This document shows positions 52,617-64,000 of a stretch of DNA of 64,000 nucleotides, piece by piece. Below the pieces are notes generated by a model that was not told the origin of the DNA, did not search any database, and worked only from the letters and a program-made list of their open reading frames with translations. Source of the DNA: Sulfurospirillaceae bacterium (GTDB lineage: Bacteria; Campylobacterota; Campylobacteria; Campylobacterales; Sulfurospirillaceae); the NCBI GenBank assembly GCA_033723415.1, contig JAWVXD010000001.1, positions 352,001 to 416,000 on the forward strand. Direction: 5' to 3'. Both the position numbers and the translations under genes were made by a program. Every line of letters begins with the position of its first letter. Position 1 is the first letter of the stretch.

Positions 52617-55478
52617 ATGTCCGAGACTTGCAATCGTAGACCAAAGTGTACACATCAAAAATATGGTGATTCTACGAAGTGTATCTTGCATTGTGATAAA
52701 TCAAATTTTAACGATGATGATATAAGATTTTTTTGGGAAAAAATACGGGAAGAATATATTCAGTACTCTTATCCTGATATTTCTAATGAGATTATCATAG
52801 AAGATGTAATCTTCCCTAAATTTGGAATTTTTAACAGGTATAACACATATTTTTTTCAAGGCAATTGTAGATTCCTTCATAATGTAAAATTTATAAAGTG
52901 TATTTTTACAGATAATTTTGATTTATCACAAGCCGAATCTAGCCAAAAGATAACATTTGATAATTGTACTTTCTATGGAGATATTCAGTTCAGCCAGTCA
53001 AATACAATAGAGATAATAAATAATTCTCAGTTTAAAAATGAAGTCTCATTTGGACATTCCTGCTGGAATAAATTAGAGATAAAAAGCACCAAGTTTTTTC
53101 AAGATACAAAAATATACATAAAAAATGATTTAAATATAGATGATTGTACTTTTAATAATGATGTCTTAATAGATGGTTTTACTACTTTGAACTTAGGTAT
53201 TAAAAACGGATCATATAAGAAACTAGTAACCATAAGTAATACCAAAAGTATAAAGCTTGAAGATGTTAAATTGAACTCAGATGTAAATTTCAGTGGGACT
53301 AATGATAATATCGATATAAAAAATATCGAATTTAAGAAAGATGTGACTTTTGATGCATTTAATAATTTACACTTAAACAACACCCAGTTTCATCAAAAAA
53401 GCAATTTTAGTCCAAACCCATATCATGACATCACTTTTGACAACACAAAAATGAATGATGTGGAATTACATTCTGGGAATACTTTGACTATCGTTAATTC
53501 TAGTGAAGTCAATGGAAATCTAAAGCTAAACGAAGTATATCAAAAGTTAAATATTGAAAATTGTAATATTAAGAAAAACTTGAATGTTGGCAATGTCAAG
53601 GAGATTATATTAAAGTGGAGTAGACTTGAAAAAAACTCAGTATTTAGCGGTGTATATAATGATGTAGATATCTTGGAATGCTCATTTAAAGACTTGACAA
53701 TAAATGCAACCAATACAATAAAAATAAGTGACAGTAAAATTACTGGTGACCTTGATTTGCTTGGACAAGACTATAAAGATATATCTGCCAGCCACACTGA
53801 GATTTCTGGTACGATACAAATAGGTAAAGCGACAAAAATAGAGTTAATTGATCTAAAACCAAATCCATCTCTAAAACTGATAAATGATGAATATGAAGAT
53901 GTCAATATAAAAGACTCAAGATTTACCGATGTTAAAATGAACTCTATAAAGGTATTAAATATTCAAAAGACTACAATAAATGGTATATTTAGTTTATTGG
54001 GAGAACAAAATCAAAATTTAACCTTTAATACGGTTAAATTTAAAAATAGATGTGATTTTCCTAATATTACTAAGTTGATTTTCAATAAAAGCAGTTTTGC
54101 AAAAGATGTGAATTTTAATACTTTAGGCAGGTTAGTTTCAAATCAAACTCAATTCAATGAAGACGTGAAATTTTTAGCAGAATGCACAACTATTGAACTT
54201 GAAAATTGCGAATTTCATCAAAAAATGCAACTCTCAAAAGTTACAAATTCGTTGGATTTCAAATCTTGTTGCTTTAAAGGGGAGGTCGATTTCAGGAATG
54301 GTGAATTTAAGGTAGTAAATATACTTTCTTCAACTTTTGAAGGTGATTTATTGTTATCCTCATCCATAATAGAAAAAATTCATCTAGATAAGATAACAGA
54401 AGAATTGGCTGAAAATAACTCATTTTCTTCCGTAGATTTTACTGAATCACAAATTAAGTATATTACTATAGCCAACTCTAATTTTAGTGGTACATTAAAA
54501 TTTACAAAGTTACAGCAAACACAATCTTTATTATCCTTAGATAATATTACAACGTCGACTATTGAATGTTTGATGATTGAACATAGTACGATAATGAACT
54601 TATTTAGGAGTTCCAAGCATCTAATAATTAACAATTTTACACTAGAAAATGTAAAATTAGACACAAATAGTTCAGAAATAGATTTAACAGATATAAAAAT
54701 AAGTGAACTAAAATTCAATAAAATAAGTATCTTAAAAAATATGAATTTTAGTGAAATGAAGATAAAAAAATTCATAATAGGCAATTCAAACATAGAACAT
54801 GTATTTAGAATAAAATACTCTGATATAGGTACTTTTACACTCATATCTAGTACTTTTGAAGACTTACAGATAATAGACAATAAATGTGAGCATTTTGATG
54901 AAGAAAAAAAATTAATATTGAGAAACACGACAATAAAAAATGCTGTATTAGACAAATTAAGATATAACAGTTTTATTATGAATGATGCTCATGTAAGTGA
55001 TGTTAAAATAGGTTATGTAAAGTTCAAAAAGGGGAGTAGAGAAACAAATAGATTTTTCAAAAATTATTATGATTCAATTAGTGATTATATTACAGCAAAT
55101 ACATATTATAAACAAGAGATGGAAGAACAACTCAAAGCTTCTTCTACTGATAACGGGGAGAAATTTGTTTTATGGATAGGGAAAACAGTTTCTAATTTTG
55201 GGCAAAGTTGGAGTCGACCTCTTTGCTTAATGATTTGTTTTTCAATTTTCTTTTTTATGTATATGCATTGGCAAATATTTTATAGCTACGGATGGCATTA
55301 TTTATGGCAAAGTAAATTAACTATTTGGAATGAATTTTGGGAATTTTTAAATCCATTTGTAAGAACAATTGATCCACAATACAAAGGAAGTTATAGTATT
55401 TGGATATTTCATAAAATATTGATGGCTATTCTCATGTATCATTTTATTGTAGCAGTAAAAAGAAAAACAAAAAGATAA
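52617..55478 (+). CDS. Large pentapeptide-like beta-solenoid protein with C-terminal membrane domain
   Basis: N-terminal CILHC, long F-x-x-x-x-F repeat region, SNFGQSWSRP followed by TM helices. Confidence 0.7.
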   Translation: MSETCNRRPKCTHQKYGDSTKCILHCDKSNFNDDDIRFFWEKIREEYIQYSYPDISNEIIIEDVIFPKFGIFNRYNTYFFQGNCRFLHNVKFIKCIFTDNFDLSQAESSQKITFDNCTFYGDIQFSQSNTIEIINNSQFKNEVSFGHSCWNKLEIKSTKFFQDTKIYIKNDLNIDDCTFNNDVLIDGFTTLNLGIKNGSYKKLVTISNTKSIKLEDVKLNSDVNFSGTNDNIDIKNIEFKKDVTFDAFNNLHLNNTQFHQKSNFSPNPYHDITFDNTKMNDVELHSGNTLTIVNSSEVNGNLKLNEVYQKLNIENCNIKKNLNVGNVKEIILKWSRLEKNSVFSGVYNDVDILECSFKDLTINATNTIKISDSKITGDLDLLGQDYKDISASHTEISGTIQIGKATKIELIDLKPNPSLKLINDEYEDVNIKDSRFTDVKMNSIKVLNIQKTTINGIFSLLGEQNQNLTFNTVKFKNRCDFPNITKLIFNKSSFAKDVNFNTLGRLVSNQTQFNEDVKFLAECTTIELENCEFHQKMQLSKVTNSLDFKSCCFKGEVDFRNGEFKVVNILSSTFEGDLLLSSSIIEKIHLDKITEELAENNSFSSVDFTESQIKYITIANSNFSGTLKFTKLQQTQSLLSLDNITTSTIECLMIEHSTIMNLFRSSKHLIINNFTLENVKLDTNSSEIDLTDIKISELKFNKISILKNMNFSEMKIKKFIIGNSNIEHVFRIKYSDIGTFTLISSTFEDLQIIDNKCEHFDEEKKLILRNTTIKNAVLDKLRYNSFIMNDAHVSDVKIGYVKFKKGSRETNRFFKNYYDSISDYITANTYYKQEMEEQLKASSTDNGEKFVLWIGKTVSNFGQSWSRPLCLMICFSIFFFMYMHWQIFYSYGWHYLWQSKLTIWNEFWEFLNPFVRTIDPQYKGSYSIWIFHKILMAILMYHFIVAVKRKTKR

Positions 55479-55504: not shown

Positions 55505-56560
55505 TTAAAACAGATCCGTGGTTTTTTTCAATCTCTCTTGGTCAAAATGCGTATAAATTCTGGATGTATTGATATCTGCATGACCGAGGGATTCTTGAAC
55601 GAGTACCAAATCTCTGTTTTTTTGGTAGAGCAGGGTGGCAAACGTGTGTCTTAGCATATGGCAACCGTTTTTCTCTTTCCTTAAGCCCGCACTCATAAGT
55701 ATCTGCTCAACTAAGCGGCTTAGATAGGCTTGTGTTAATTTTGTGCCCTTTTGATTGCAGAACATCAGCCCGTCTTCACAATTTCTGATCTCAAGCCATG
55801 CAGCCAAGTCCTCTTTGATCACGCGCTCTCTTATCATGACGACTCTGGATTTATTTCCTTTTCCTGTTATCTTTATGATGTAATTATCTTCTTCTTTGAA
55901 AAAGTCCTTGATCTTGACACTGATCGCTTCTCCGACTCTGATGCCTGTATAAAGGATTAGTTTTATGACCAAGCGGTTCCTAGCGCCAAGTTCAGGAGTT
56001 TTGTAATCAAATGCATCGATTGCATTGATAAATCTAGAGGCTTCTTCTTTGTTAAGAAAAGAGGGCAGTTTGACACCGCTTTTCCCGCTCAAACCGCCCC
56101 AATTTTTAAGCTCTATACCATATCTGTAGGCGTTGCCGTTTTCATCTTCATTTTGTTTATCTATATAACCAAAAAAGCCAAGTAGGGCGATACGGTAGTT
56201 TTTTTTACTCGCATCTGACAAACTTGAAGTCTCACTCGCTAAAAAATCACTCAGAAGCTCTTCATCGATCTCTTTCATAGAACCTGCACCAAATCGCATA
56301 AGATACTCATATAGCTTTTCAAGTGGACGGTAATAGACATGAACGCCACTCATACCTATATTTCTCGCTTCTTTTAAAAGATTTGTTAGAGTTTTTATAT
56401 CACTGGTACCTTTTGCTAGATTTTGGATAATGATTGCCAGTTTGTCTTTGTCCGTTACTTGTCGATTTGAAAGAGTCGTAACCTTGTTGCGTATAAATCT
56501 ACTAAGCCAAAAAAGATACGTTTGACTAAAAGTCGACTCAAGATCAAGAGAATACCTCAT
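55505..56560 (-). CDS. xerH: Tyrosine recombinase XerH
   Basis: Catalytic R-K-HxxR-H-Y (GIRVGEA, GKGNK, HMLRH, LGH, SRIYTH); N-terminus LFWLSRFIRNK..LSN typical of XerH; adjacent difH. Confidence 0.92.
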   Translation of the reverse strand: MRYSLDLESTFSQTYLFWLSRFIRNKVTTLSNRQVTDKDKLAIIIQNLAKGTSDIKTLTNLLKEARNIGMSGVHVYYRPLEKLYEYLMRFGAGSMKEIDEELLSDFLASETSSLSDASKKNYRIALLGFFGYIDKQNEDENGNAYRYGIELKNWGGLSGKSGVKLPSFLNKEEASRFINAIDAFDYKTPELGARNRLVIKLILYTGIRVGEAISVKIKDFFKEEDNYIIKITGKGNKSRVVMIRERVIKEDLAAWLEIRNCEDGLMFCNQKGTKLTQAYLSRLVEQILMSAGLRKEKNGCHMLRHTFATLLYQKNRDLVLVQESLGHADINTSRIYTHFDQERLKKTTDLF

Positions 56561-56606
56561 AATGTGCCTTTTTTTGATATTTTCATATTATAGCAAAATT
56601 TAGCTT

Positions 56607-56640
56607 AATTGTATTGGAAACTGTAATTTCCAAACTCTTA
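56607..56640. other. difH chromosome dimer-resolution site; probable left attachment junction of the provirus
   Basis: AATTGTATTGGAAA-CTGTAA-TTTCCAAACTCTTA: inverted arms around a 6-bp spacer, closely matching Campylobacter difH as recalled; about 50 bp upstream of xerH. Confidence 0.85.
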
Positions 56641-56708
56641 TTTGGATTTATTGGCTTGAAACTTAAACGAGTGAGAAATTATGAGTTAAAACTTAAAAAG
56701 AGTATGTC

Positions 56709-57332
56709 ATGATAGACATAAAACTCATTGATAAGTTTAAAAATGGCCGTACAACGGTTGAGAATGATATTTTACTAGATAGTACCTTGACAGCAACTGA
56801 AAAGATAGTCTATATGTACATCGAAATGCTATCGCACAAAGATAACTACTGTTATGCGACAAATATACAGATATCGGATCTTACCGGACAAACAATAGAC
56901 TCATTGAAACAAGCATTTAAAAAACTCAAAAAGAAAAAATACATTGTAGTCGATACGCTACAAACGCGCACACCATACAAGCGCCGTATATTCACGGAAA
57001 CACGTTTTTTACGTGCTTGGAATCAAAACACCCTACCCCGTGACTGTACGGTAAAAGAGCCAATAAAACGGCCTGACGAGCTAGATAGACAAGCAATCAG
57101 CAAGTCATTTCCAAAGTTTAGGAAATTCATAAAATTATATCTTACAGAAAATCAATTTAACATCACTACACCGGGCGAACTTCAAAACAAAACTATCATG
57201 ATCAAAAAGAACGGCTACTACACAAGCATTTGGGATGCGCGAGATCTCACAAAAGATGAAAGCGTAACGTTTGAAATGCTGATGTTCGATAAACGCGAAA
57301 CATTGCTAGATAATTTTTTCAATAAGGAGTGA
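56709..57332 (+). CDS. Winged-helix phage replication initiator-like protein
   Basis: LLDSTLTATEKIVYMYI...YCYATNIQISDLTG...LKQAFKKLKKKKYI resembles HTH_36-type phage replication N-termini. Confidence 0.65.
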   Translation: MIDIKLIDKFKNGRTTVENDILLDSTLTATEKIVYMYIEMLSHKDNYCYATNIQISDLTGQTIDSLKQAFKKLKKKKYIVVDTLQTRTPYKRRIFTETRFLRAWNQNTLPRDCTVKEPIKRPDELDRQAISKSFPKFRKFIKLYLTENQFNITTPGELQNKTIMIKKNGYYTSIWDARDLTKDESVTFEMLMFDKRETLLDNFFNKE

Positions 57333-57520
57333 AAATGCAAATCAAAAAAGGTGATATTATTGTCTATAAAGTCGGTAAGAATACAAAGCAAAGCAAAGTT
57401 AGAAAGATGAACTTTGATAATAGTGCTTCAATTTTTGCAAAAGAAAAGATCATACCTTGGGATAATATTTTAGGCGTATGCTCTACTATAAAGGATCATC
57501 ATGATAATCGAAATAAATGA
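57329..57520 (+). CDS. Phage hypothetical protein
   Basis: 63 aa, AAGGAG RBS, overlaps upstream stop. Confidence 0.6.
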   Translation: MKMQIKKGDIIVYKVGKNTKQSKVRKMNFDNSASIFAKEKIIPWDNILGVCSTIKDHHDNRNK

Positions 57521-57716
57521 GGAAGATTATGACTTTATCATGTATCTTATCAGAGAGGAAATATATGATAAAAAAGACAGTTTAGAGATACTTAAAGGCA
57601 AAGATCATTTTTATGGTAACGAAGATCCATATAGGATAAAGAGGATCAAAGAGTTAAAAAGAGAGATTAGAAAGATTATTGAACTAAGGAGAGCTTTAAA
57701 ACGAGGAATAAAATAG
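57501..57716 (+). CDS. Phage hypothetical protein
   Basis: 71 aa, AAGGA RBS, basic coiled-coil C-terminus. Confidence 0.6.
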   Translation: MIIEINEEDYDFIMYLIREEIYDKKDSLEILKGKDHFYGNEDPYRIKRIKELKREIRKIIELRRALKRGIK

Positions 57717-57726
57717 CTGTTTAACT

Positions 57727-57787
57727 CTCATATAGGGATACCGTAATTTCCCTATATGAGCGTTTTCATGTTACGGAATGAAAGCGC
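57727..57787. promoter_or_regulatory. Twin hairpins with complementary loops between early and late genes
   Basis: CTCATATAGGGA..TCCCTATATGAG (loop contains CCGTAA) abutting GCGTTTTCAT..ATGAAAGCGC (loop contains TTACGG). Confidence 0.55.
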
Positions 57788-57812
57788 CTTTATATCAAAA
57801 TAAAGGCATAAA

Positions 57813-58262
57813 ATGGGAATAACAAATTTTTTCAGCGGTTTATTTAGCAGCGGAGCCGCAAAAGTAGTCGATGCGATCGGCAATGCAGCAGATAAACTCT
57901 TTACAAGCGATGCAGAGCGTTTACAATTCCGTAATGATCTACAAAAAGAGCTAGACGATCTCAAAGTCAAACTCAATGATGCACTTGCGGCATACGACAA
58001 AGAGATCACGACACGCTGGCAAAGCGATAACGAACACATCATCACGCGCTTAGTGCGCCCTCTTTCGTTTATATACGTTCTCGTCATATTTTCATTTATG
58101 GCGCTACTTGACGGAAATATCGGAACATTTCATATCAACACGGCTTATTTGCCTATATTTCAAGGGTTACTTGGAACTATGGTTGTCGCCTACTTTGGCA
58201 GTCGTGGTATCGAAAAAGTATCAAACATAATAAAAAAATCAAATCAAGGAGATAACCAATGA
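57813..58262 (+). CDS. 3TM holin family protein
   Basis: DKLFTSDAER...RWQSD...VRP...YFGSRGIEK pattern of GTA_holin_3TM-like holins. Confidence 0.8.
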   Translation: MGITNFFSGLFSSGAAKVVDAIGNAADKLFTSDAERLQFRNDLQKELDDLKVKLNDALAAYDKEITTRWQSDNEHIITRLVRPLSFIYVLVIFSFMALLDGNIGTFHINTAYLPIFQGLLGTMVVAYFGSRGIEKVSNIIKKSNQGDNQ

Positions 58263-58594
58263 GTACAAAAAAGCAAATAGATCAGATCGAAGAGATAGAA
58301 GATCTACCCGATCAACTTGATCCACCAAATCCAGAGATTGAAAAGGAAAAGCCGGAAGTTGAGATAAAAGAAACTTTGACACCGGATCTCGAAAAAAAGA
58401 TTGATGAGATTGAACATAAATTAGATCAATATCATGTTCAATCTATCAAAAAAGAATTTGAAGATCATTCAAAAGAAAAACTACAAAGATCAAAATCTAA
58501 ATTTATTTGGTTATTTGGTAGTATTTGTGTTGCTAGTATTGGCTTAATACTTATAAAAAACGCTAAAAACAGCGAAACGGAGGCTAATGGATGA
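58259..58594 (+). CDS. Phage membrane-anchored protein
   Basis: Acidic N-terminus, C-terminal TM helix; ATGA overlaps on both sides. Confidence 0.7.
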   Translation: MSTKKQIDQIEEIEDLPDQLDPPNPEIEKEKPEVEIKETLTPDLEKKIDEIEHKLDQYHVQSIKKEFEDHSKEKLQRSKSKFIWLFGSICVASIGLILIKNAKNSETEANG

Positions 58595-59154
58595 GTAAAG
58601 AAGCGGTTGACGGAACGGATAATGGCGTAGAAAGGAATATTCCTTTTGAAGAAATGGGAAACAGTACGGAGGGCATTACCCGTACTGAGTTAATGGAAAA
58701 AACCGGCAAAGAACTAGCAAAAATGGCATTGCCTTATACAACTTGGAAAGAGAGTACATTATCAAAGTTATCTAAGCCAGAACTATGTGATATCATACTA
58801 ACAAAAGGAGCAAATAAAGAGCAGCAAGAGCCGAGAGCTAGAGCAGCAAGAGCCACGAGTGATAGTGAAGCAATTATCGAGACATTTCTTGCTATTGCAG
58901 AGAGTTTTAAGCTTAAAAGAGAAAAAGAGCCTTTAAATGCTACAGCCAAACAGATCTTTAAAAATAATGCCGTTAATTTAGTCGATAAAAAGGTTGAAGA
59001 GGAAACGTTAAGCAGCCACGGTGTAAATGTTACAGTGGCATTTATTGCCGGTACATTTTTAGCTATAGACGGGCTTATAGGCTTAGCAAACATCCCAACA
59101 TTCTTTTCAAAGATAAAGAGCAAACTAAATGTTAATAAAACAGAAGCAAAATAA
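58591..59154 (+). CDS. Phage membrane-anchored protein
   Basis: 187 aa with C-terminal hydrophobic segment, GGAGG RBS; directly upstream of ATPase. Confidence 0.7.
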   Translation: MSKEAVDGTDNGVERNIPFEEMGNSTEGITRTELMEKTGKELAKMALPYTTWKESTLSKLSKPELCDIILTKGANKEQQEPRARAARATSDSEAIIETFLAIAESFKLKREKEPLNATAKQIFKNNAVNLVDKKVEEETLSSHGVNVTVAFIAGTFLAIDGLIGLANIPTFFSKIKSKLNVNKTEAK

Positions 59155-59785
59155 GATAATTACAGTTATCGGACATAAGGGCTATGGAAAAACAGCTTTA
59201 ACAGAAGCCCTTATGCTTATGTATGATAAACCGACAATTATCGCAGATCCACGATTTCAATACTCTACTTTTCAAAAGCGCCGTGTAAGCTTTAGATCTG
59301 TAGGTGATTTTAGAAAGTGGATCTATAACACGGCAAATTTCAAAGATTTTTATAAATACAAACTCGAACTCGTCGTAAATGCTTTTGATGATACATTTGA
59401 AGAGTTAGCACATATTGTGAGACAAATGAGATCTTTGATGTTTGTCGTCGATGAAGTAGATATGTTCTTAGATCCACGGGCTACAAAAAACAACTCCTTG
59501 AACAAAATTATTCAGTATGGTAGACACCACGAGATCGACATCATAACTACTTCTAGGAGACCGGCAAACATCTCGCGTAACTTAACATCTCAAACAGATA
59601 TATTTTATTTCTCTAAGTTACGCGAGCCAACTGATAAACTGTACATAAAACAAGCGATAGGTGCAGAATATGTCAGTACCGTTGAAAACTTAGAGAGATT
59701 TAGCTTTTTAGAGTTTGAAGACGAAGAACACCAAAAGATCATCACTACTTCTGAAAGAGATCTTGAACTATTACAAAGAGGGTGA
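59129..59785 (+). CDS. FtsK/HerA-superfamily genome packaging ATPase (P9/A32-like)
   Basis: Walker A GHKGYGKT, Walker B FVVDEVD, arginine-finger region YGRHHEIDIITTSRRPANI...SQTD; about 220 aa, no TM. Confidence 0.85.
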   Translation: MLIKQKQNKIITVIGHKGYGKTALTEALMLMYDKPTIIADPRFQYSTFQKRRVSFRSVGDFRKWIYNTANFKDFYKYKLELVVNAFDDTFEELAHIVRQMRSLMFVVDEVDMFLDPRATKNNSLNKIIQYGRHHEIDIITTSRRPANISRNLTSQTDIFYFSKLREPTDKLYIKQAIGAEYVSTVENLERFSFLEFEDEEHQKIITTSERDLELLQRG

Positions 59786-59810
59786 GGAAAAATCTTTGAA
59801 AGGAGGAAAA

Positions 59811-59906
59811 ATGCAAGCAAAATTGATGAAAGGCTTTGTCTTAGGTATCACCGTAGTTGTTATAAGTGGCGTTGTGGGTAAATGGATCCCATCCGTAAAA
59901 ATATAA
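59811..59906 (+). CDS. 31-aa phage membrane protein
   Basis: MQAKLMKGFVLGITVVVISGVVGKWIPSVKI preceded by AGGAGG; the track's 59715 start is probably too long. Confidence 0.75.
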   Translation: MQAKLMKGFVLGITVVVISGVVGKWIPSVKI

Positions 59907-59932
59907 AAAAATTTATCATATAAGGAAAAAAT

Positions 59933-60040
59933 ATGAATATCACAAAACTTGATGTTTATTTGGCAGCAGGTATCTTAGTTGGCATTGCAGCCGGGAAAAA
60001 ATTTGTTGATCCGATCTTAGTTTCGGTTTTGGGGGCATAG
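59933..60040 (+). CDS. 35-aa phage membrane protein (not in ORF track)
   Basis: MNITKLDVYLAAGILVGIAAGKKFVDPILVSVLGA preceded by TAAGGA; stop lies 1 nt before capsid gene start. Confidence 0.78.
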   Translation: MNITKLDVYLAAGILVGIAAGKKFVDPILVSVLGA

Positions 60041-60041
60041 T

Positions 60042-61001
60042 ATGGCGCAATCATTAAAAGTAAAAGAAAATTCCGCAACGTGGGCAGCTTCTACTCAATC
60101 CAGGATCCCTCTTAGTAGAAATTATCATGTGGAAAATTACCTTGTGAAAATAAAAGTAACACATGATAACGGGGCAACCCCTGTGTTTTATAATGAGGGC
60201 GTTTTTTCTTTAATTAACAATATACAGTTGATTGGAAATGGCAATGAAAATATTAAACAAATGCCAGCAAACAAATTATATATCGACAGTATTTTAAGAA
60301 GTGGGAAAAATGGCGGTAACTCTCTTGATACTACAGCAAACAAAACCGGACTTACAAGCTATGTTTGGGCCCGTATCAATCTAAGTATGCCAAATTCTGT
60401 TCGACCTTGGGACACTATCCTATGGACAAAACCATTCCAATCTCTCGATCTTATGATTGATTGGGCTTCAAGTGCAAATATCGGATCTAATATTACTGTA
60501 ACAGCAGCAGAAATGACAGTATTTTCAAATCAGTTAATCGGATATAGTAGAGCAAAAGGCGAAGTGATTAAATACTATGAAGAAACAGCACTTAAAGAAG
60601 AAGTGACTGGAACAAATGCTCAATTAACTTTCAATTTACCAGTAAATAAACTTTATAGAGCTATTTCTATAGTATCAACAATTAATGGCTTAAGAGCTGA
60701 TACTGTGATAAACTCTATTAAGCTAAAAAGCGGGCAAACAGTTTTTTGTGATTGGGATGCTGAAGCATTTAACGAACACAATAAAGAAACATATCGTATT
60801 GAATCATCAACAGATTTTAAAGGAATCTATGTAGTTGATTTTGCAGAGCGTGGAAGACTAAGCGATATGCTGAATACAATCGTAGCACAAGGTGGTTACA
60901 ATACTTTAGAACTTGTTTTAAACGTCACAAAACAAACGGGATCAAACTTTGTAGACGTCTATTTTGACACGGTAAAACAGACTACAGCAACGGAGGTTTA
61001 A
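60042..61001 (+). CDS. Putative double-jelly-roll major capsid protein
   Basis: 319 aa, beta-strand-rich two-domain pattern reminiscent of STIV/PM2 capsids; located two small genes after the packaging ATPase. Confidence 0.75.
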   Translation: MAQSLKVKENSATWAASTQSRIPLSRNYHVENYLVKIKVTHDNGATPVFYNEGVFSLINNIQLIGNGNENIKQMPANKLYIDSILRSGKNGGNSLDTTANKTGLTSYVWARINLSMPNSVRPWDTILWTKPFQSLDLMIDWASSANIGSNITVTAAEMTVFSNQLIGYSRAKGEVIKYYEETALKEEVTGTNAQLTFNLPVNKLYRAISIVSTINGLRADTVINSIKLKSGQTVFCDWDAEAFNEHNKETYRIESSTDFKGIYVVDFAERGRLSDMLNTIVAQGGYNTLELVLNVTKQTGSNFVDVYFDTVKQTTATEV

Positions 61002-61002
61002 T

Positions 61003-61308
61003 ATGCCTAATTATAACGGGGATGGCACAAACGGCGGTATTTCCACCGCCTCCACTCCAATTTCAGGAACGGTAAATGGTACTGATTGGTTATCAAATAT
61101 TTTAAAGCCTATTAGTAATGCCGTTGTTACAGTTGCACAAACACAAGCACAAGTTGACGCACTAAAATCACAGACCGCTACACAACAAAATTATCAAAAT
61201 ACACAAAACGCAATTGGATCTAAAAATATCATTGGCGGTGTGGATAACAATATCTTACTTTTGGGTTTAGTTGGTGTAGTCGGAATTTACATGTTTATGA
61301 AAGGGTAA
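61003..61308 (+). CDS. Virion membrane protein
   Basis: G/S/T/Q-rich with C-terminal TM (ILLLGLVGVVGIYMFMK); follows capsid gene. Confidence 0.7.
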   Translation: MPNYNGDGTNGGISTASTPISGTVNGTDWLSNILKPISNAVVTVAQTQAQVDALKSQTATQQNYQNTQNAIGSKNIIGGVDNNILLLGLVGVVGIYMFMKG

Positions 61309-61311
61309 ATT

Positions 61312-61698
61312 ATGGGTTTCTTTGGTGGAAGTGCTAGTAGTAGCGGAATTGTAACAAGTAGCATTAATTTTAACCCGTCAATGCAGTTTGGCACAGATAA
61401 TACAGCAAAGCCCTCTCAATCAGTAAGTCAGACACCCAAATTGACACAAACTACAAAGGATCAAGGGCTAGCAGCCGCCGCAAGTGTTGGGCTTGGTTTT
61501 GGTGGGAGTGGATCTGCAGGGCCGGCAAGTTTGGCAGAAGCTCCTCTGGTTGGATCTGCACAAACTGGAAGCGCTGCACAGCCTTTAAGTACTTTGGCAT
61601 CTAATTACAAAAAATATTTGCCTTTACTTGGCTTAGCCGGAGTTGGTGGATATATGCTAATTGTAAATGATAAGTCTGGAAAAAAGGCTAAAAAATGA
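61312..61698 (+). CDS. Virion membrane protein
   Basis: G/S/A-rich, C-terminal TM then basic tail. Confidence 0.7.
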   Translation: MGFFGGSASSSGIVTSSINFNPSMQFGTDNTAKPSQSVSQTPKLTQTTKDQGLAAAASVGLGFGGSGSAGPASLAEAPLVGSAQTGSAAQPLSTLASNYKKYLPLLGLAGVGGYMLIVNDKSGKKAKK

Positions 61699-62009
61699 GT
61701 TGGTTAAGTAGTCTTTTAGGTGGTGGAGGCAGCACAAGCTCCACTACCTCAAACACAACGGTAAGTGTAAGTCCAACTACAATTATAAATACCGATAAAC
61801 TGGCTCAAGCTATAGCAGACGGAAATGCAACACAAGCACAACTTGCACAAGCAACAATCACAGCACAAGTAGCCGAACAAAACGCAAAATTGCAACAAAA
61901 CGCGCAGATCTTTGATACCTTAAGAGCAGGCGCAAAAAAATATGCTTTTTTAAGTTTGCTAGGCTTTGGAGTTTACAAGATTTTTAAAAACAAAAGAGGT
62001 AAAAAATGA
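61695..62009 (+). CDS. Virion membrane protein
   Basis: S/T-rich then Q/A coiled coil, C-terminal TM and basic tail. Confidence 0.7.
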   Translation: MSWLSSLLGGGGSTSSTTSNTTVSVSPTTIINTDKLAQAIADGNATQAQLAQATITAQVAEQNAKLQQNAQIFDTLRAGAKKYAFLSLLGFGVYKIFKNKRGKK

Positions 62010-62560
62010 ATTACAACGTAATTACAAAAGATATATCTAACGGGCTATCTCTTAGTCAAAGCAATACACTTGGAAAAGGAGATTATATTATCTTAAGATA
62101 TGCGCCGGATCTTGCGAATGTACGAGTGAGATTAAACAGCCCTGATGCTCCTGCAATAAGTATGATACAAGATGACAGCATCAATGCAAAAGGCATAAAT
62201 CTTGTATATATCGAGTGTGACCCAGTAGCAGCAGAAAAGATAATCTTTGCCCAGGGCAATACAGATCTAGACTTTCAAATCAATCCGGCTCCTGCTCTTA
62301 AAACTGTAAATGTAAACGGATCTTTTATGCCGCGTACGGATCAAAAACAAACGATAGCTGCAGGAGCAAATTTTATATTAGACACAACGACACTTAAAGC
62401 GATCAGGTTTCTAGCTACTGATTACGTTGATGTGTCACTCAATGGCAGTGCAATAAACTATCAAATGCTAGAAGATGAGATCTACACGGGTAATATCACG
62501 TCGTTAAAGTTTACAAACAACACGGCTTCAGCCATTGATCTTGTAATATGGGAGATGTAA
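62006..62560 (+). CDS. Putative vertex/penton protein
   Basis: 184 aa, beta-rich, two similar-looking halves, in structural block. Confidence 0.45.
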   Translation: MNYNVITKDISNGLSLSQSNTLGKGDYIILRYAPDLANVRVRLNSPDAPAISMIQDDSINAKGINLVYIECDPVAAEKIIFAQGNTDLDFQINPAPALKTVNVNGSFMPRTDQKQTIAAGANFILDTTTLKAIRFLATDYVDVSLNGSAINYQMLEDEIYTGNITSLKFTNNTASAIDLVIWEM

Positions 62561-62561
62561 A

Positions 62562-62942
62562 ATGTTAGGTATTTCAAGAGCTTTGGTAGAAAAACTTTTC
62601 GCAAAAAAAAGCGACAAAAATCAGTGTACAGCTTGGGTTGTATTTGACGGAACAACAACTCCTCCAACAATAAAAGATAGTTATAATGTTATTTCTGTTA
62701 CTAAAATTGCAGTCGGTGTCTACGATATAAATTTTACAATACCTATGAAAAATATAAACTACCAAACAAGTGGATCTGTAACAGATGATAATTCTTCTAG
62801 TGGGTTTATCTATGAAAGAGGCACTTTTGCACAAAATAGAACCGTTAATAAATGCAGAATTGTAACTATTCAGATATCTGGAGGTAATACAAGTACAGTT
62901 GATCGTTCAGGGATAACATTCAGCGCAATTGGAGGTATCTAA
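62562..62942 (+). CDS. Putative receptor-binding/spike protein with tail-fibre-type domain
   Basis: TAWVVFDG...IKDSYNVISVT...GVYDINFTIPM.N.NY motif common in phage tail-fibre C-terminal domains. Confidence 0.65.
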   Translation: MLGISRALVEKLFAKKSDKNQCTAWVVFDGTTTPPTIKDSYNVISVTKIAVGVYDINFTIPMKNINYQTSGSVTDDNSSSGFIYERGTFAQNRTVNKCRIVTIQISGGNTSTVDRSGITFSAIGGI

Positions 62943-63253
62943 TGGGATATTTTAAAGTAGTTAACGATTATGTTCAAACGTGTAGTAAAAAAATAGATGA
63001 TACTTGGTTTCCAATTACTAGAGATCAAAACGGAAATATCATCGGGCCGAGTGTTCTAGTCACGCAAATTGCAGATGAACAAAAAGCAACTTCAAACGCA
63101 AAAATAATGCAGCAGATAACAGCACTTGAAAGTGAACTGATAAGACCGATGCGAGAGCTTTTAAGCTCAATTGTAACAGACAAAACCTATGCTCAAACAA
63201 AGGTAAATGACATCGAAACAAAAATTGAAGCTTTGAGGGCTCAAATTGTCTAA
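62942..63253 (+). CDS. Putative fibre-associated chaperone-like protein
   Basis: ITALESELIRPMRELL...IETKIEALRAQI helical motif like proteins encoded next to phage fibre genes. Confidence 0.5.
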   Translation: MGYFKVVNDYVQTCSKKIDDTWFPITRDQNGNIIGPSVLVTQIADEQKATSNAKIMQQITALESELIRPMRELLSSIVTDKTYAQTKVNDIETKIEALRAQIV

Positions 63254-63314
63254 GAAAAAAATAATAGCCTATGGCTCTTTTTTGGTGTCATTGGTATATT
63301 TTAGGAGTTTTTTT

Positions 63315-63779
63315 ATGTACGGATTAATTTCAAAAAAACATTTGGACGAAATTATCGTCAATGTAGTTAATACACTAGGTGGAGGTCAAAATGCTATAGA
63401 TCTTTTAAGCGAAACGGCTATGTCGGAGACACACTACGGAGATACACCGGACCTACACTTACACAGCGGTTATGGAATTTTTCAATTTGATAAGCCAGGC
63501 TTTGATGATGTAGTTGCCAGAACACCGCAAAGTACAAAGGATCTCATCAAAAAAGTCTATGACATTGACATCGATCAAGTCAGCATATTGGCGCTGCAAT
63601 GGTCGCCGCTTTTAAGTACGATCTTTGCACGACTTTTTTACATGCTTCGCCCTGGTGCGATCCCTGATACAATTCAAGGACGGGCACAGTATTGGAAACA
63701 GTATTACAACACTTTTGCGGGAGCAGGAACGGTGCAACATTATCTTAATGCAAACCAAACCGAAAGGTTTAACGCATGA
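63315..63779 (+). CDS. Lysozyme-like endolysin/lytic transglycosylase
   Basis: LLSETAMSET catalytic-Glu-like helix, GYGIFQFD, YWKQYYNT.AG.GT; ATG 63315 has AGGAG RBS (alternative TTG at 63246). Confidence 0.7.
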   Translation: MYGLISKKHLDEIIVNVVNTLGGGQNAIDLLSETAMSETHYGDTPDLHLHSGYGIFQFDKPGFDDVVARTPQSTKDLIKKVYDIDIDQVSILALQWSPLLSTIFARLFYMLRPGAIPDTIQGRAQYWKQYYNTFAGAGTVQHYLNANQTERFNA

Positions 63780-64000
63780 CACCAACTTTAAATAATAATT
63801 TAGCGGATATGTTTGTTGCGTCCACACCGGTTTTGCAGACGGCACCGATACAGTCAAGCAATTTAAGTACATTTGATAAGATATTATACGGTTATGATAA
63901 TATGATCTCAAATGCTAGTAATTCAGCAGATCAAACGCTTACAGATCAAGCGATTGCACAAGAAAAATTTAAACAAAATGCATCGAATATGTATACAAAT
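63776..64000 (+). CDS. Phage hypothetical protein, truncated by window end
   Basis: ATGA overlap with lysin stop; open for 75 codons (MTPTLNNNLADMFVAS...NASNMYTN). Confidence 0.7.
   Translation, partial: MTPTLNNNLADMFVASTPVLQTAPIQSSNLSTFDKILYGYDNMISNASNSADQTLTDQAIAQEKFKQNASNMYTN

Follow-up and report, generated by a model that had tools for sequence, protein, structure and literature searches.

A tailless double jelly-roll provirus at the difH site of a Sulfurospirillum-like bacterium, probably an integrative element that exploits XerH

What is a block of phage-like genes doing beside the XerH recombinase gene of a Campylobacterota bacterium, and which enzyme put it there? The question is raised by a 64,000-nucleotide stretch of a Sulfurospirillaceae genome (assembly GCA_033723415.1, contig JAWVXD010000001.1, positions 352,001 to 416,000; hereafter the window), in which such a block begins just behind a difH site. 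We conclude that a temperate virus of 9.2 kb, tailless and with a double jelly-roll (DJR) capsid protein, is probably integrated here at the difH of a Sulfurospirillum-like host, in other words an integrative element exploiting XerH. An initial annotation of the window had proposed a DJR virus that integrates via XerH; the capsid, the packaging ATPase, the flanking sites and the lack of an integrase speak for this, while the dependence on XerH and the internal membrane are what we infer.

Positions are those of the window, G000:C1:352001-416000 in our labelling, in which G000 is the genome under study (2.43 Mb), other G-numbers are other genomes, L-numbers are loci or contigs and C denotes a contig. 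Past position 64000, window-equivalent positions continue the same numbering. The 20 kb around the right end of the window were examined as locus L002, whose positions are window positions minus 55000. Of the genomes compared, G013 and G001 belong to the same genus as G000 and G241 is an XerCD-type host from another family; L040 is a metagenome contig. Papers are cited for those parts of them that were available. Three features define the position of the element:

55505..56560, minus strand: host xerH, encoding the single Xer tyrosine recombinase (351 aa); outside the element; Pfam PF18644 (5.9e-56) and PF00589 (1e-31)
56613..56636, plus strand: attL, a complete palindromic difH, ATTGGAAA-CTGTAA-TTTCCAAACT; left arm from the host, right arm and right flank from the element
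G000:C1:417827-417850 (L002 10827-10850), direct orientation: attR, GGTGTCAA-CTATAA-TTTCCAAACT; 9214 bp from the first site

The xerH product matches Helicobacter pylori XerH (5jjv/5jk0) with an E-value of 1.6e-100 over residues 11-349. It comes from the only XerH-like gene in G000; two further tyrosine recombinases, on C6 and C3, are distant. The left difH lies 52 nt from xerH and 72 nt ahead of the ATG of the first element gene at 56709, matching the spacing of about 70 bp given in the initial annotation. The published difH consensus is TGAAAAC---A-TTTTCAAA (PMC2731167, Table 2), and the G000 site, which reads TGGAAAC and TTTCCAAA, fits it except for one symmetric G/C change per arm. Its left arm is, by eye, one base longer than its right arm, as in H. 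pylori difH (PMC5241119). The site thus has inverted arms around a 6-bp centre, is low in G+C and intergenic, adjoins xerH and lies near the GC-skew terminus, the cumulative GC skew of the contig being maximal at 400-420 kb, where difH is located. The central region reads CTGTAA at the left site (window 56621) and CTATAA at the right site (window-equivalent 65835); CTATAA is also the centre of the xerH-adjacent difH of eight relatives, and the junction in G275 has CTGTAA. This G/A difference may be a trace of the centre of the phage site (attP) or a later mutation, and because a single base is insufficient, the G in the attL centre gives no order of strand exchange.

XerH orthologs (threshold E <= 1e-40) were found in 20 of the 31 genomes searched, G000 included (19 of 30 relatives). 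In 11 of the 19 relatives' loci fetched, a difH-like site lies within 1.5 kb of xerH; in eight of these sites the sole departure from the query 21-mer is an A at the central position, where the left site of G000 has G; the other three belong to the TTGAAAA type. Four genomes (G003, G008, G012 and G017) have both xerH and difH and lack the capsid gene. Since the pair is found in relatives without the capsid gene, it is a host property, and xerH and difH belong, judging by this sequence comparison, to the host and not to the element. A core motif 3.1 kb from xerH in G009 was considered as a further insert and rejected, there being a single full difH and two host-like genes between.

The provirus spans window positions 56613-64000 and continues to window-equivalent 65850, 1.85 kb beyond the window. 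Its right end carries the second difH-like copy for which the initial annotation had advised looking, in the form of a half site: attR retains the 6-bp centre and the right arm together with several adjoining bases (22 of 24 positions over AACTRTAATTTCCAAACTYTTATT), its left arm is degenerate, and over the whole of difH the two sites agree at 19 of 24 positions. When the 24-mer was searched in the genome at up to five mismatches, three matches were obtained, namely the two flanks and one on C6, and the exact 13-mer core RTAATTTCCAAAC occurs only at the two flanks. Of 61 genomes of the family, 45 lack the 17-mer core AACYRTAATTTYCAAAC, 13 have it once and three (G000, G013 and G008) have it twice; its reversed control gave no hit in any of the 61. 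These counts indicate that the difH core is a one-per-genome site that is doubled only where an insert is present.

Two proteins point to the kind of virus involved:

59129..59785, plus strand: packaging ATPase of the FtsK/HerA type, 218 aa; PHROG 2666 (5.6e-22) and Pfam AAA_22
60042..61001, plus strand: 319-aa DJR capsid protein, from AlphaFold and Foldseek

A database search with the 319-aa protein returned 34 matches at E <= 1e-3, itself included, of which 33 entered the alignment for AlphaFold (row P0016, a 279-aa form with 82% query coverage, was excluded). The resulting AF2 model has a mean predicted local distance difference test score (pLDDT) of 91.9 and a predicted template modelling score (pTM) of 0.87. 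Foldseek against the PDB retrieved P3 of PR772/PRD1 (E 3e-21, TM 0.76), the STIV capsid protein (2.6e-18) and PM2 P2 (1.7e-15), so that PRD1 and STIV rank above PM2, and against BFVD it retrieved tectivirus and STIV capsid proteins. Pfam P2_C scores 23.5 bits, under its 25-bit cut-off; some homologs have precomputed P2_C or P2_N matches. The capsid profile gave nothing significant against PDB sequences, the fold search alone being informative, tblastn against 50,697 deposited phage records returned no match, and none of 129 pattern matches among IMG/VR viral contigs encodes an element relative. On its predicted structure, the protein is a DJR capsid protein, as the initial annotation had suspected. 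The ATPase gene, also recognised there, lies 257 nt upstream; residues 9-197 of its product align with the STIV2 B204 packaging NTPase (4kfr) at E 2.5e-6, and there are matches to HerA helicases as well.

We scanned the element ORFs in the window with Pfam and PHROGs and three ORFs beyond it with Pfam (all but a 56-aa ORF). No integrase, recombinase, portal or tail family was detected in them, and the statement of the initial annotation that terminase, portal, tail and integrase are lacking extends downstream of the window. The PHROG label 'terminase large subunit' falls on the ATPase and 'tail fiber' on a 126-aa protein; given the sequences, we read these as a packaging ATPase and a receptor-binding domain. 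In gene content the element is, by its sequence, of the PM2/PRD1/STIV type, with a DJR capsid and a packaging ATPase and no recombinase of its own. This lack and the flanks formed by difH and a dif-like copy in direct orientation are two features of integrative mobile elements exploiting Xer (IMEX).

Is the arrangement found elsewhere? The capsid gene was present in five of 401 genomes sampled from the order (one match weak), in four of 61 genomes of the family and in four of 353 genomes of the family of G241. In G013 a related element occupies the same place: a full difH, 9159 bp, then GTTGGCAA-CTATAA-TTTCCAAACT. Its proteins are identical to those of G000 at 90% of positions for the ATPase, 78% for the HTH_36 protein, 69.5% for the capsid and 36-85% for the others. 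Homology between the two genomes ends at the half site and resumes at hspR, the degenerate left arms of attR differ between them, and the right flank CTCTTATTTGG of the full difH is common to both carriers. In G001 a relative lies on a separate 5.5 kb contig (C235, L003), and the difH of that genome, next to a histidine-phosphatase gene, is apparently empty: two other contigs (C156 and C233; L066 and L069) stop shortly beyond it and overlap across it, which is why we regard it as unoccupied. G001 could represent a mixed population of occupied and empty sites or an episomal form. In G008, a full and a half difH at the same place enclose an insert of 1174 bp (L027 3004-4200; G008:C19 about 69004-70200). 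It holds two short ORFs of 131 and 115 aa, which overlap and match nothing in Pfam; the junction of difH with the histidine phosphatase is present in G001 without it, and the insert looks like a miniature element at difH. In G275, a relative starts beside the best difH-like site of that genome, ATTGTTGAAAA-CTGTAA-TTTTCAC, and the contig ends inside the capsid gene; a search for the right half with the 177-aa protein of the element as query did not find it.

Relatives also occur in hosts with another Xer system. Sulfurimonas and Sulfurovum fall in the XerCD/classical-dif group of the phylum (Carnoy and Roten; PMC2731167), and G241 has no XerH ortholog (best matches 33% and 32% identical) and no difH pattern. 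The genome of G241 is one contig of 2.56 Mb; its element sits about 51% of the way along and is flanked by a 31-nt direct repeat, the copies 9503 bp apart. The left copy, AGTTAACATAA-TGTATA-TTCTCTTGAAA, agrees as reverse complement with the classical dif of Sulfurimonas denitrificans (PMC2731167) at 26 of 28 positions, compared by eye; the right copy has a degenerate outer XerD arm. L040 holds a relative in the gene neighbourhood of G241 (TetR-POR on one side, response regulator-gltX on the other), between a full dif and a second partial copy. Terminal overlaps of 55-127 nt, the signature of a circular assembly, were found in four of 28 loci tested (L004, L034, L036 and L044); the circular relatives measure 8.5-8.9 kb, and L041 holds its att site twice, 9086 bp apart. 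The attP of L004/L044, L034 and L041, which contains ATAATGTAAATTCTCTTGAAAA, comprises the XerC-side arm, the central region and the inner XerD arm, the outer XerD arm being degenerate. No recombinase was found in L004, L034 or L041, L044 being counted by its att site, which it shares with L004. A search of the circular relatives for the Sulfurospirillum difH gave nothing convincing, the circles holding a classical-dif-like attP instead, and no circular relative of the difH type was recovered. In a maximum-likelihood tree of 12 capsid proteins, G000, G013, G275, G001 and L030 form one clade (support 89/93), as against a classical-dif clade (100/100). With classical dif flanks in XerCD hosts and matching attP in the circles, the attachment site follows the Xer system of the host.

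How would integration proceed? In the scheme we propose, the virus would have a circular double-stranded DNA genome whose attP imitates difH in its centre and right arm and is degenerate in its left arm. Host XerH would synapse attP with difH, and strands would be exchanged at the 6-bp central region. A complete functional difH would be regenerated at the xerH-proximal junction, attL, and the host would retain dimer resolution; the distal junction, attR, would lack a left arm, would recombine poorly and would help to hold the prophage. Poor recombination of attR is expected since H. pylori XerH requires the left arm for binding and first cleavage: in H. pylori difH the left arm has the tighter binding and the first cleavage, activity depends on it, and the authors of that work place it on the XerD side and the right arm on the XerC side (PMC5241119). 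On this mapping, the difH-type and G241-type attP would copy the same XerC-like half, as do those of TLC-phi and the gonococcal genetic island (GGI), with L040 as an exception. Catalysis by XerH, its order of strand exchange, a bypass of FtsK control and eventual excision would all be parts of such a cycle, and virions would presumably be formed.

Several observations weigh against this reading. In H. pylori, sites without a left arm are poor XerH substrates (PMC5241119), which sits uneasily with recombination of an attP whose left arm is degenerate. None of the small element ORFs has a Pfam match, so no candidate for an Xer-activation factor emerges from that search, XafT-type included. The XafT-type domain is known from TLC-phi. 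The difH-like site at the left end of the G275 element has an inverted orientation with respect to the first gene, and the contig stops before the right end. An empty site with the right-hand neighbours of G000 is absent among the xerH loci of 19 relatives and L027/L028: the genes for the Sel1-like repeat (SLR) protein, hspR and cbpA do not lie to the right of difH there, L010 has a weak cbpA-like match on the other side of xerH, and in other genomes of the genus cbpA and xerH are on different contigs. The comparison with an empty difH envisaged in the initial annotation gave an apparently empty site in G001 and none with the same right-hand neighbours. A free or excised form was not seen: the only public run with this DNA, stored as contigs and possibly the source of the assembly, shows the integrated form alone, with neither an attP nor an empty-site junction among its entries, and in this form it says nothing on excision. 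The second site of L040 retains the XerD-side arm instead of the XerC-side one, and the rule 'always the same half' thus fails for the group as a whole. Two relatives, L030 (2299-2967) and L036 (1489-2190), encode a serine recombinase of the Resolvase family and have no recognisable dif-like attP, from which it appears that the virus group swaps integration or resolution modules, L036 being a circular assembly. Lastly, G000 and G013 are each other's closest relatives, and since element and host have diverged to a similar extent, with synonymous sites near saturation in both, the two may not be independent integrations.

This last point leads to an alternative that we consider unlikely, namely that the virus entered at difH and is now a vertically inherited, immobile or domesticated remnant, G000 and G013 sharing one ancient insertion with no ongoing XerH recombination. 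Identical placement and orientation in the two genomes that are most closely related would fit, as would nucleotide identities of 67-79% in the element against 77% in the flanking host genes, the near-saturated synonymous sites and the single run. A remnant is harder to square with element ORFs that are all intact in both genomes and with ratios of nonsynonymous to synonymous substitution (dN/dS) of 0.06-0.16 between them wherever synonymous sites were unsaturated and a ratio computable, which point to purifying selection. Divergence is also uneven: synonymous divergence (dS) is about 1.0 in three element genes, those for the ATPase and for the 187-aa and 132-aa proteins, against 1.6 to saturated in host genes, and other element genes are 36-62% identical. 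Such a mosaic fits viral gene flow better and argues, though not decisively, against a purely inherited relic. The differing left arms of attR, the G001 relative on a contig apart from an empty difH and the existence of circular relatives point the same way.

Integration by a recombinase other than XerH, either a serine recombinase since lost, as in L030 and L036, or an integrase supplied in trans by another prophage, is in our judgement very unlikely. Candidates exist, given the Resolvase-family genes of those relatives and the two additional tyrosine recombinases of G000. Yet the repeated sequence is the host's own difH core, genome-unique and adjoining xerH; relatives in XerCD hosts use classical dif, which is hard to reconcile with one foreign enzyme; L004, L034 and L041 are complete circles without a recombinase; and the C6 recombinase is part of a separate inovirus-like prophage and is 23% identical to XerH over a local alignment of 145 residues. 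It seems scarcely credible that the half site matches by chance or reflects an error of assembly, and that the genes form no discrete element. This reading could draw on the five differing positions between the sites and on the third 24-mer match, with three mismatches, in a coding region of C6. It is opposed by the doubling of the 17-mer in only the three insert-bearing genomes, with a clean reversed control, by the same architecture in G013, where homology to G000 breaks off at the half site, and by one contig of the source run that spans the whole region without differences. We therefore retain, as the probable explanation, a DJR virus that exploits XerH.

The remaining genes of the element, like those already described, are all on the plus strand from 56709 onward:

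56709..57332, plus strand: 207-aa HTH_36 protein, the terminal gene beside the att site; Pfam HTH_36 (2.8e-8), PHROG replication-initiation (4e-9 and weaker)
57329..57716, plus strand: two small ORFs (63 and 71 aa) without Pfam or PHROG match
57813..58262, plus strand: 149-aa holin-like membrane protein; PHROG 3427 holin (8.8e-14), counterparts in relatives match Pfam GTA_holin_3TM
58259..59154, plus strand: two conserved proteins (111 and 187 aa), the 187-aa protein kept in G013 (74%), G001, G275, G241 and L040
59715..60040, plus strand: two very small ORFs with hydrophobic stretches, without Pfam or PHROG match; a 35-aa ORF kept in G001 and G275
61003..62009, plus strand: small proteins of 101, 128 and 104 aa, each hydrophobic at the C-terminus, without firm Pfam or PHROG match
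62006..62560, plus strand: 184-aa protein with two beta-sandwich (jelly-roll-like) domains; AF2 pLDDT 80.8
62562..63253, plus strand: 126-aa receptor-binding-like protein (PHROG 11355 'tail fiber', 2.5e-12) and 103-aa protein (no match)
63246..63779, plus strand: 177-aa conserved protein; PHROG 3108, of unknown function (3.6e-23)
63776..64000, plus strand: first part of a 126-aa protein whose gene extends beyond the window
Beyond the window: 56-aa hydrophobic ORF, then a 132-aa protein with a lipoprotein-like N-terminus (by sequence reading) and no family match
L002 10453-10528, 9455-9596 and 10599-10615 (window-equivalent 65453-65528, 64455-64596 and 65599-65615): repeats

The HTH_36 protein, which is also the first gene product in the circular relatives L004, L034 and L041, is a candidate for either a replication initiator or a regulator. 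The hydrophobicity of the small ORFs was read from their translations; on this basis an internal membrane would be part of the particle, and the three proteins with hydrophobic C-termini are candidate internal-membrane proteins by analogy with PM2 and PRD1. With VIA-align the 184-aa protein matched mostly generic cupin and jelly-roll chains (Z 7-9.7), besides PR772 chain O (Z 7.1, residues 1-93) and PM2 chain L (Z 7.3, at a root-mean-square deviation of 10.3); from its model, a role as vertex or penton protein is plausible, as a guess. The 126-aa and 103-aa proteins form a candidate spike module, judged by their sequences. We do not keep the initial label of 'lysin' for the 177-aa protein: the PHROG family listed above is its sole match, Pfam, NCBIfam and PDB sequences giving none, and the ORF at the matching place in L040 is a Peptidase_M15_3.

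The right end of the element consists of about 0.8 kb of non-coding DNA before attR. It contains three palindromic copies of a 23-nt repeat similar to ACCTAGTGTCTCATAGACACCAG and three copies of TTAAGTTTCAAA, two of them continuing ...CCTTAA; CCTTAAAC-type motifs are also found beside the attachment sites of relatives. These are candidate operator or origin repeats. Rfam matches on the element were sub-threshold only (best 25.7 bits, gathering score 47). A 60-aa ORF runs across attR and is conserved in G013 (37 of 57 residues); its differences by codon position are 13, 12 and 9, and because there is no excess at third positions we did not count it as a gene.

Beyond attR follow, to the right, a Sel1-repeat-like protein (by sequence reading), hspR, cbpA, a two-component pair, lolE and secA. 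The interval between attR and hspR is variable: in G000 (L002 10920-12692) it holds the Sel1-repeat-like protein of 590 aa, and in G013 (L026 11562-14420) an M23 peptidase (Pfam), a 430-aa DEAD-box-helicase-like ORF and a 164-aa thioredoxin-like ORF, the last two labelled by reading their sequences. The region adjoining difH thus varies between G000 and G013. Directly on the other side of xerH lies a 953-aa protein with pentapeptide-repeat and DUF3737-like matches (window 52617-55478, plus strand), where the G+C content is 24-29%, the genome as a whole having 34%. The separate inovirus-like prophage on C6 (G000:C6:114000-121600; L075 4077-11595, outside the window) has a tyrosine integrase of its own (302 aa) besides an assembly ATPase of the Zot family and a Rep of the rolling-circle type (REP_ORF2-G2P / Phage_GPA). 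About 450 bp ahead of the integrase gene lies a palindrome whose arms resemble those of difH, with three mismatches to the 24-mer and a different centre. It falls within the 3' end of the replication-protein ORF of that prophage and was set aside.

How does the element compare with known exploiters of Xer recombination? The background of the initial annotation, that these are mostly filamentous phages or their satellites using XerCD in Gammaproteobacteria, is outdated. DJR phages that target dif via XerCD are described from Vibrio and Pseudoalteromonas (NO16-like 'Asemoviridae' and the PM2-like Cr39582; PMC9966536, PMC11630473, PMC12715192), and in Legionella pneumophila LME-1 is an integrative element of the single-recombinase XerL/dif system, its XerL dependence being experimental (PMC9765430). 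The novelty claimed for the present combination holds accordingly for its XerH/difH part, and not for Xer exploitation by DJR phages or for a single-recombinase case, both already known. What is new is XerH/difH in Campylobacterota; what is known is Xer-exploiting DJR proviruses.

Like the element described here, the DJR prophages of Vibrio and Pseudoalteromonas are small and tailless, many lack an integrase, and they sit at the dimer-resolution site; their attP consists of a full site or of one arm plus the centre, one junction regenerates a complete dif, and in a genome of about 10 kb the ATPase gene immediately precedes the capsid gene (PMC9966536, PMC11630473, PMC12715192). They differ in using the two-recombinase XerCD system and a 28-bp classical dif in Gammaproteobacteria, whereas ours is a Campylobacterota element at XerH/difH. 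Their lysogeny module, P16/RstR and P15/XafT, was undetected here, though no queries with P15 or P16 sequences were run; in its place the ends of our element carry the HTH_36 gene on one side and non-coding DNA with the 132-aa protein, without family match, on the other. LME-1 likewise carries a dif mimic and integrates at a single-recombinase dif site. It differs in the XerL family and its site and in a distance of more than 400 kb between dif and xerL, and for our element a role of XerH is suggested by the sites, not by experiment; in the available part of PMC9765430, LME-1 is not described as a DJR virus. CTX-phi, VGJ-phi, TLC-phi and GGI share with our element the lack of an integrase and a dif-like attP (PMC5357621). 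TLC-phi and GGI keep the XerC arm and the centre next to a divergent XerD arm, which parallels the right-arm or XerC-side half found here and in G241 (PMC5357621). The members of this group are unlike our element in being single-stranded DNA filamentous phages or an island that depend on XerCD (PMC5357621); TLC-phi encodes the XafT activator, of which no counterpart was found here. That 2017 review treats integrative elements for XerCD only, in the parts available, and the available text of a 2007 survey of PM2-like prophages raises XerC/D solely with CTX-phi as an example of recombinase-free integration (PMC1950889).

Five DJR contigs linked to Sulfurimonas, one a provirus and one with terminal repeats, are also on record (PMC11531552). 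They come from the same phylum, measure 7.4-10.7 kb and have an ATPase-capsid pair and helix-turn-helix (HTH) proteins; they may overlap with the dif-type relatives L004 and L005/L041. The word 'Xer' does not occur in that paper, its available portion has no analysis of integration sites or dif, and Sulfurospirillum-like hosts and difH-type elements lie outside its coverage. Full-text searches returned no XerH-exploiting element, most subscription journals being beyond their reach.

Has one viral lineage changed its attachment site with its host? That a single DJR lineage retargeted its att site between two non-homologous systems, XerCD/dif in Sulfurimonas-type and XerH/difH in Sulfurospirillum-type hosts, is a possibility we put forward tentatively and would not expect to hold on balance. 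On this view, the best-resolved cases copy the second-cleaved arm (XerC-like or right) together with the central region. If it is true, these viruses would have a portable, FtsK-independent switch for Xer recombinases, possibly by way of a small, unassigned element protein, and the element would be the first natural exploiter of XerH.

The authors of the XerH-difH structure state that the role of FtsK in XerH activation needs more work (PMC5241119), and XerH activation in a single-recombinase system would become directly accessible through a natural element whose recombination with difH takes place outside cell division. Standard prophage tools handle non-tailed phages poorly (PMC11531552); a search for a duplicated dif or difH core finds such small proviruses. 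With this element, tailless, membrane-type viruses known to exploit Xer in Gammaproteobacteria would be found to do so in Campylobacterota too, and one virus group would be seen to track its hosts across two Xer systems.

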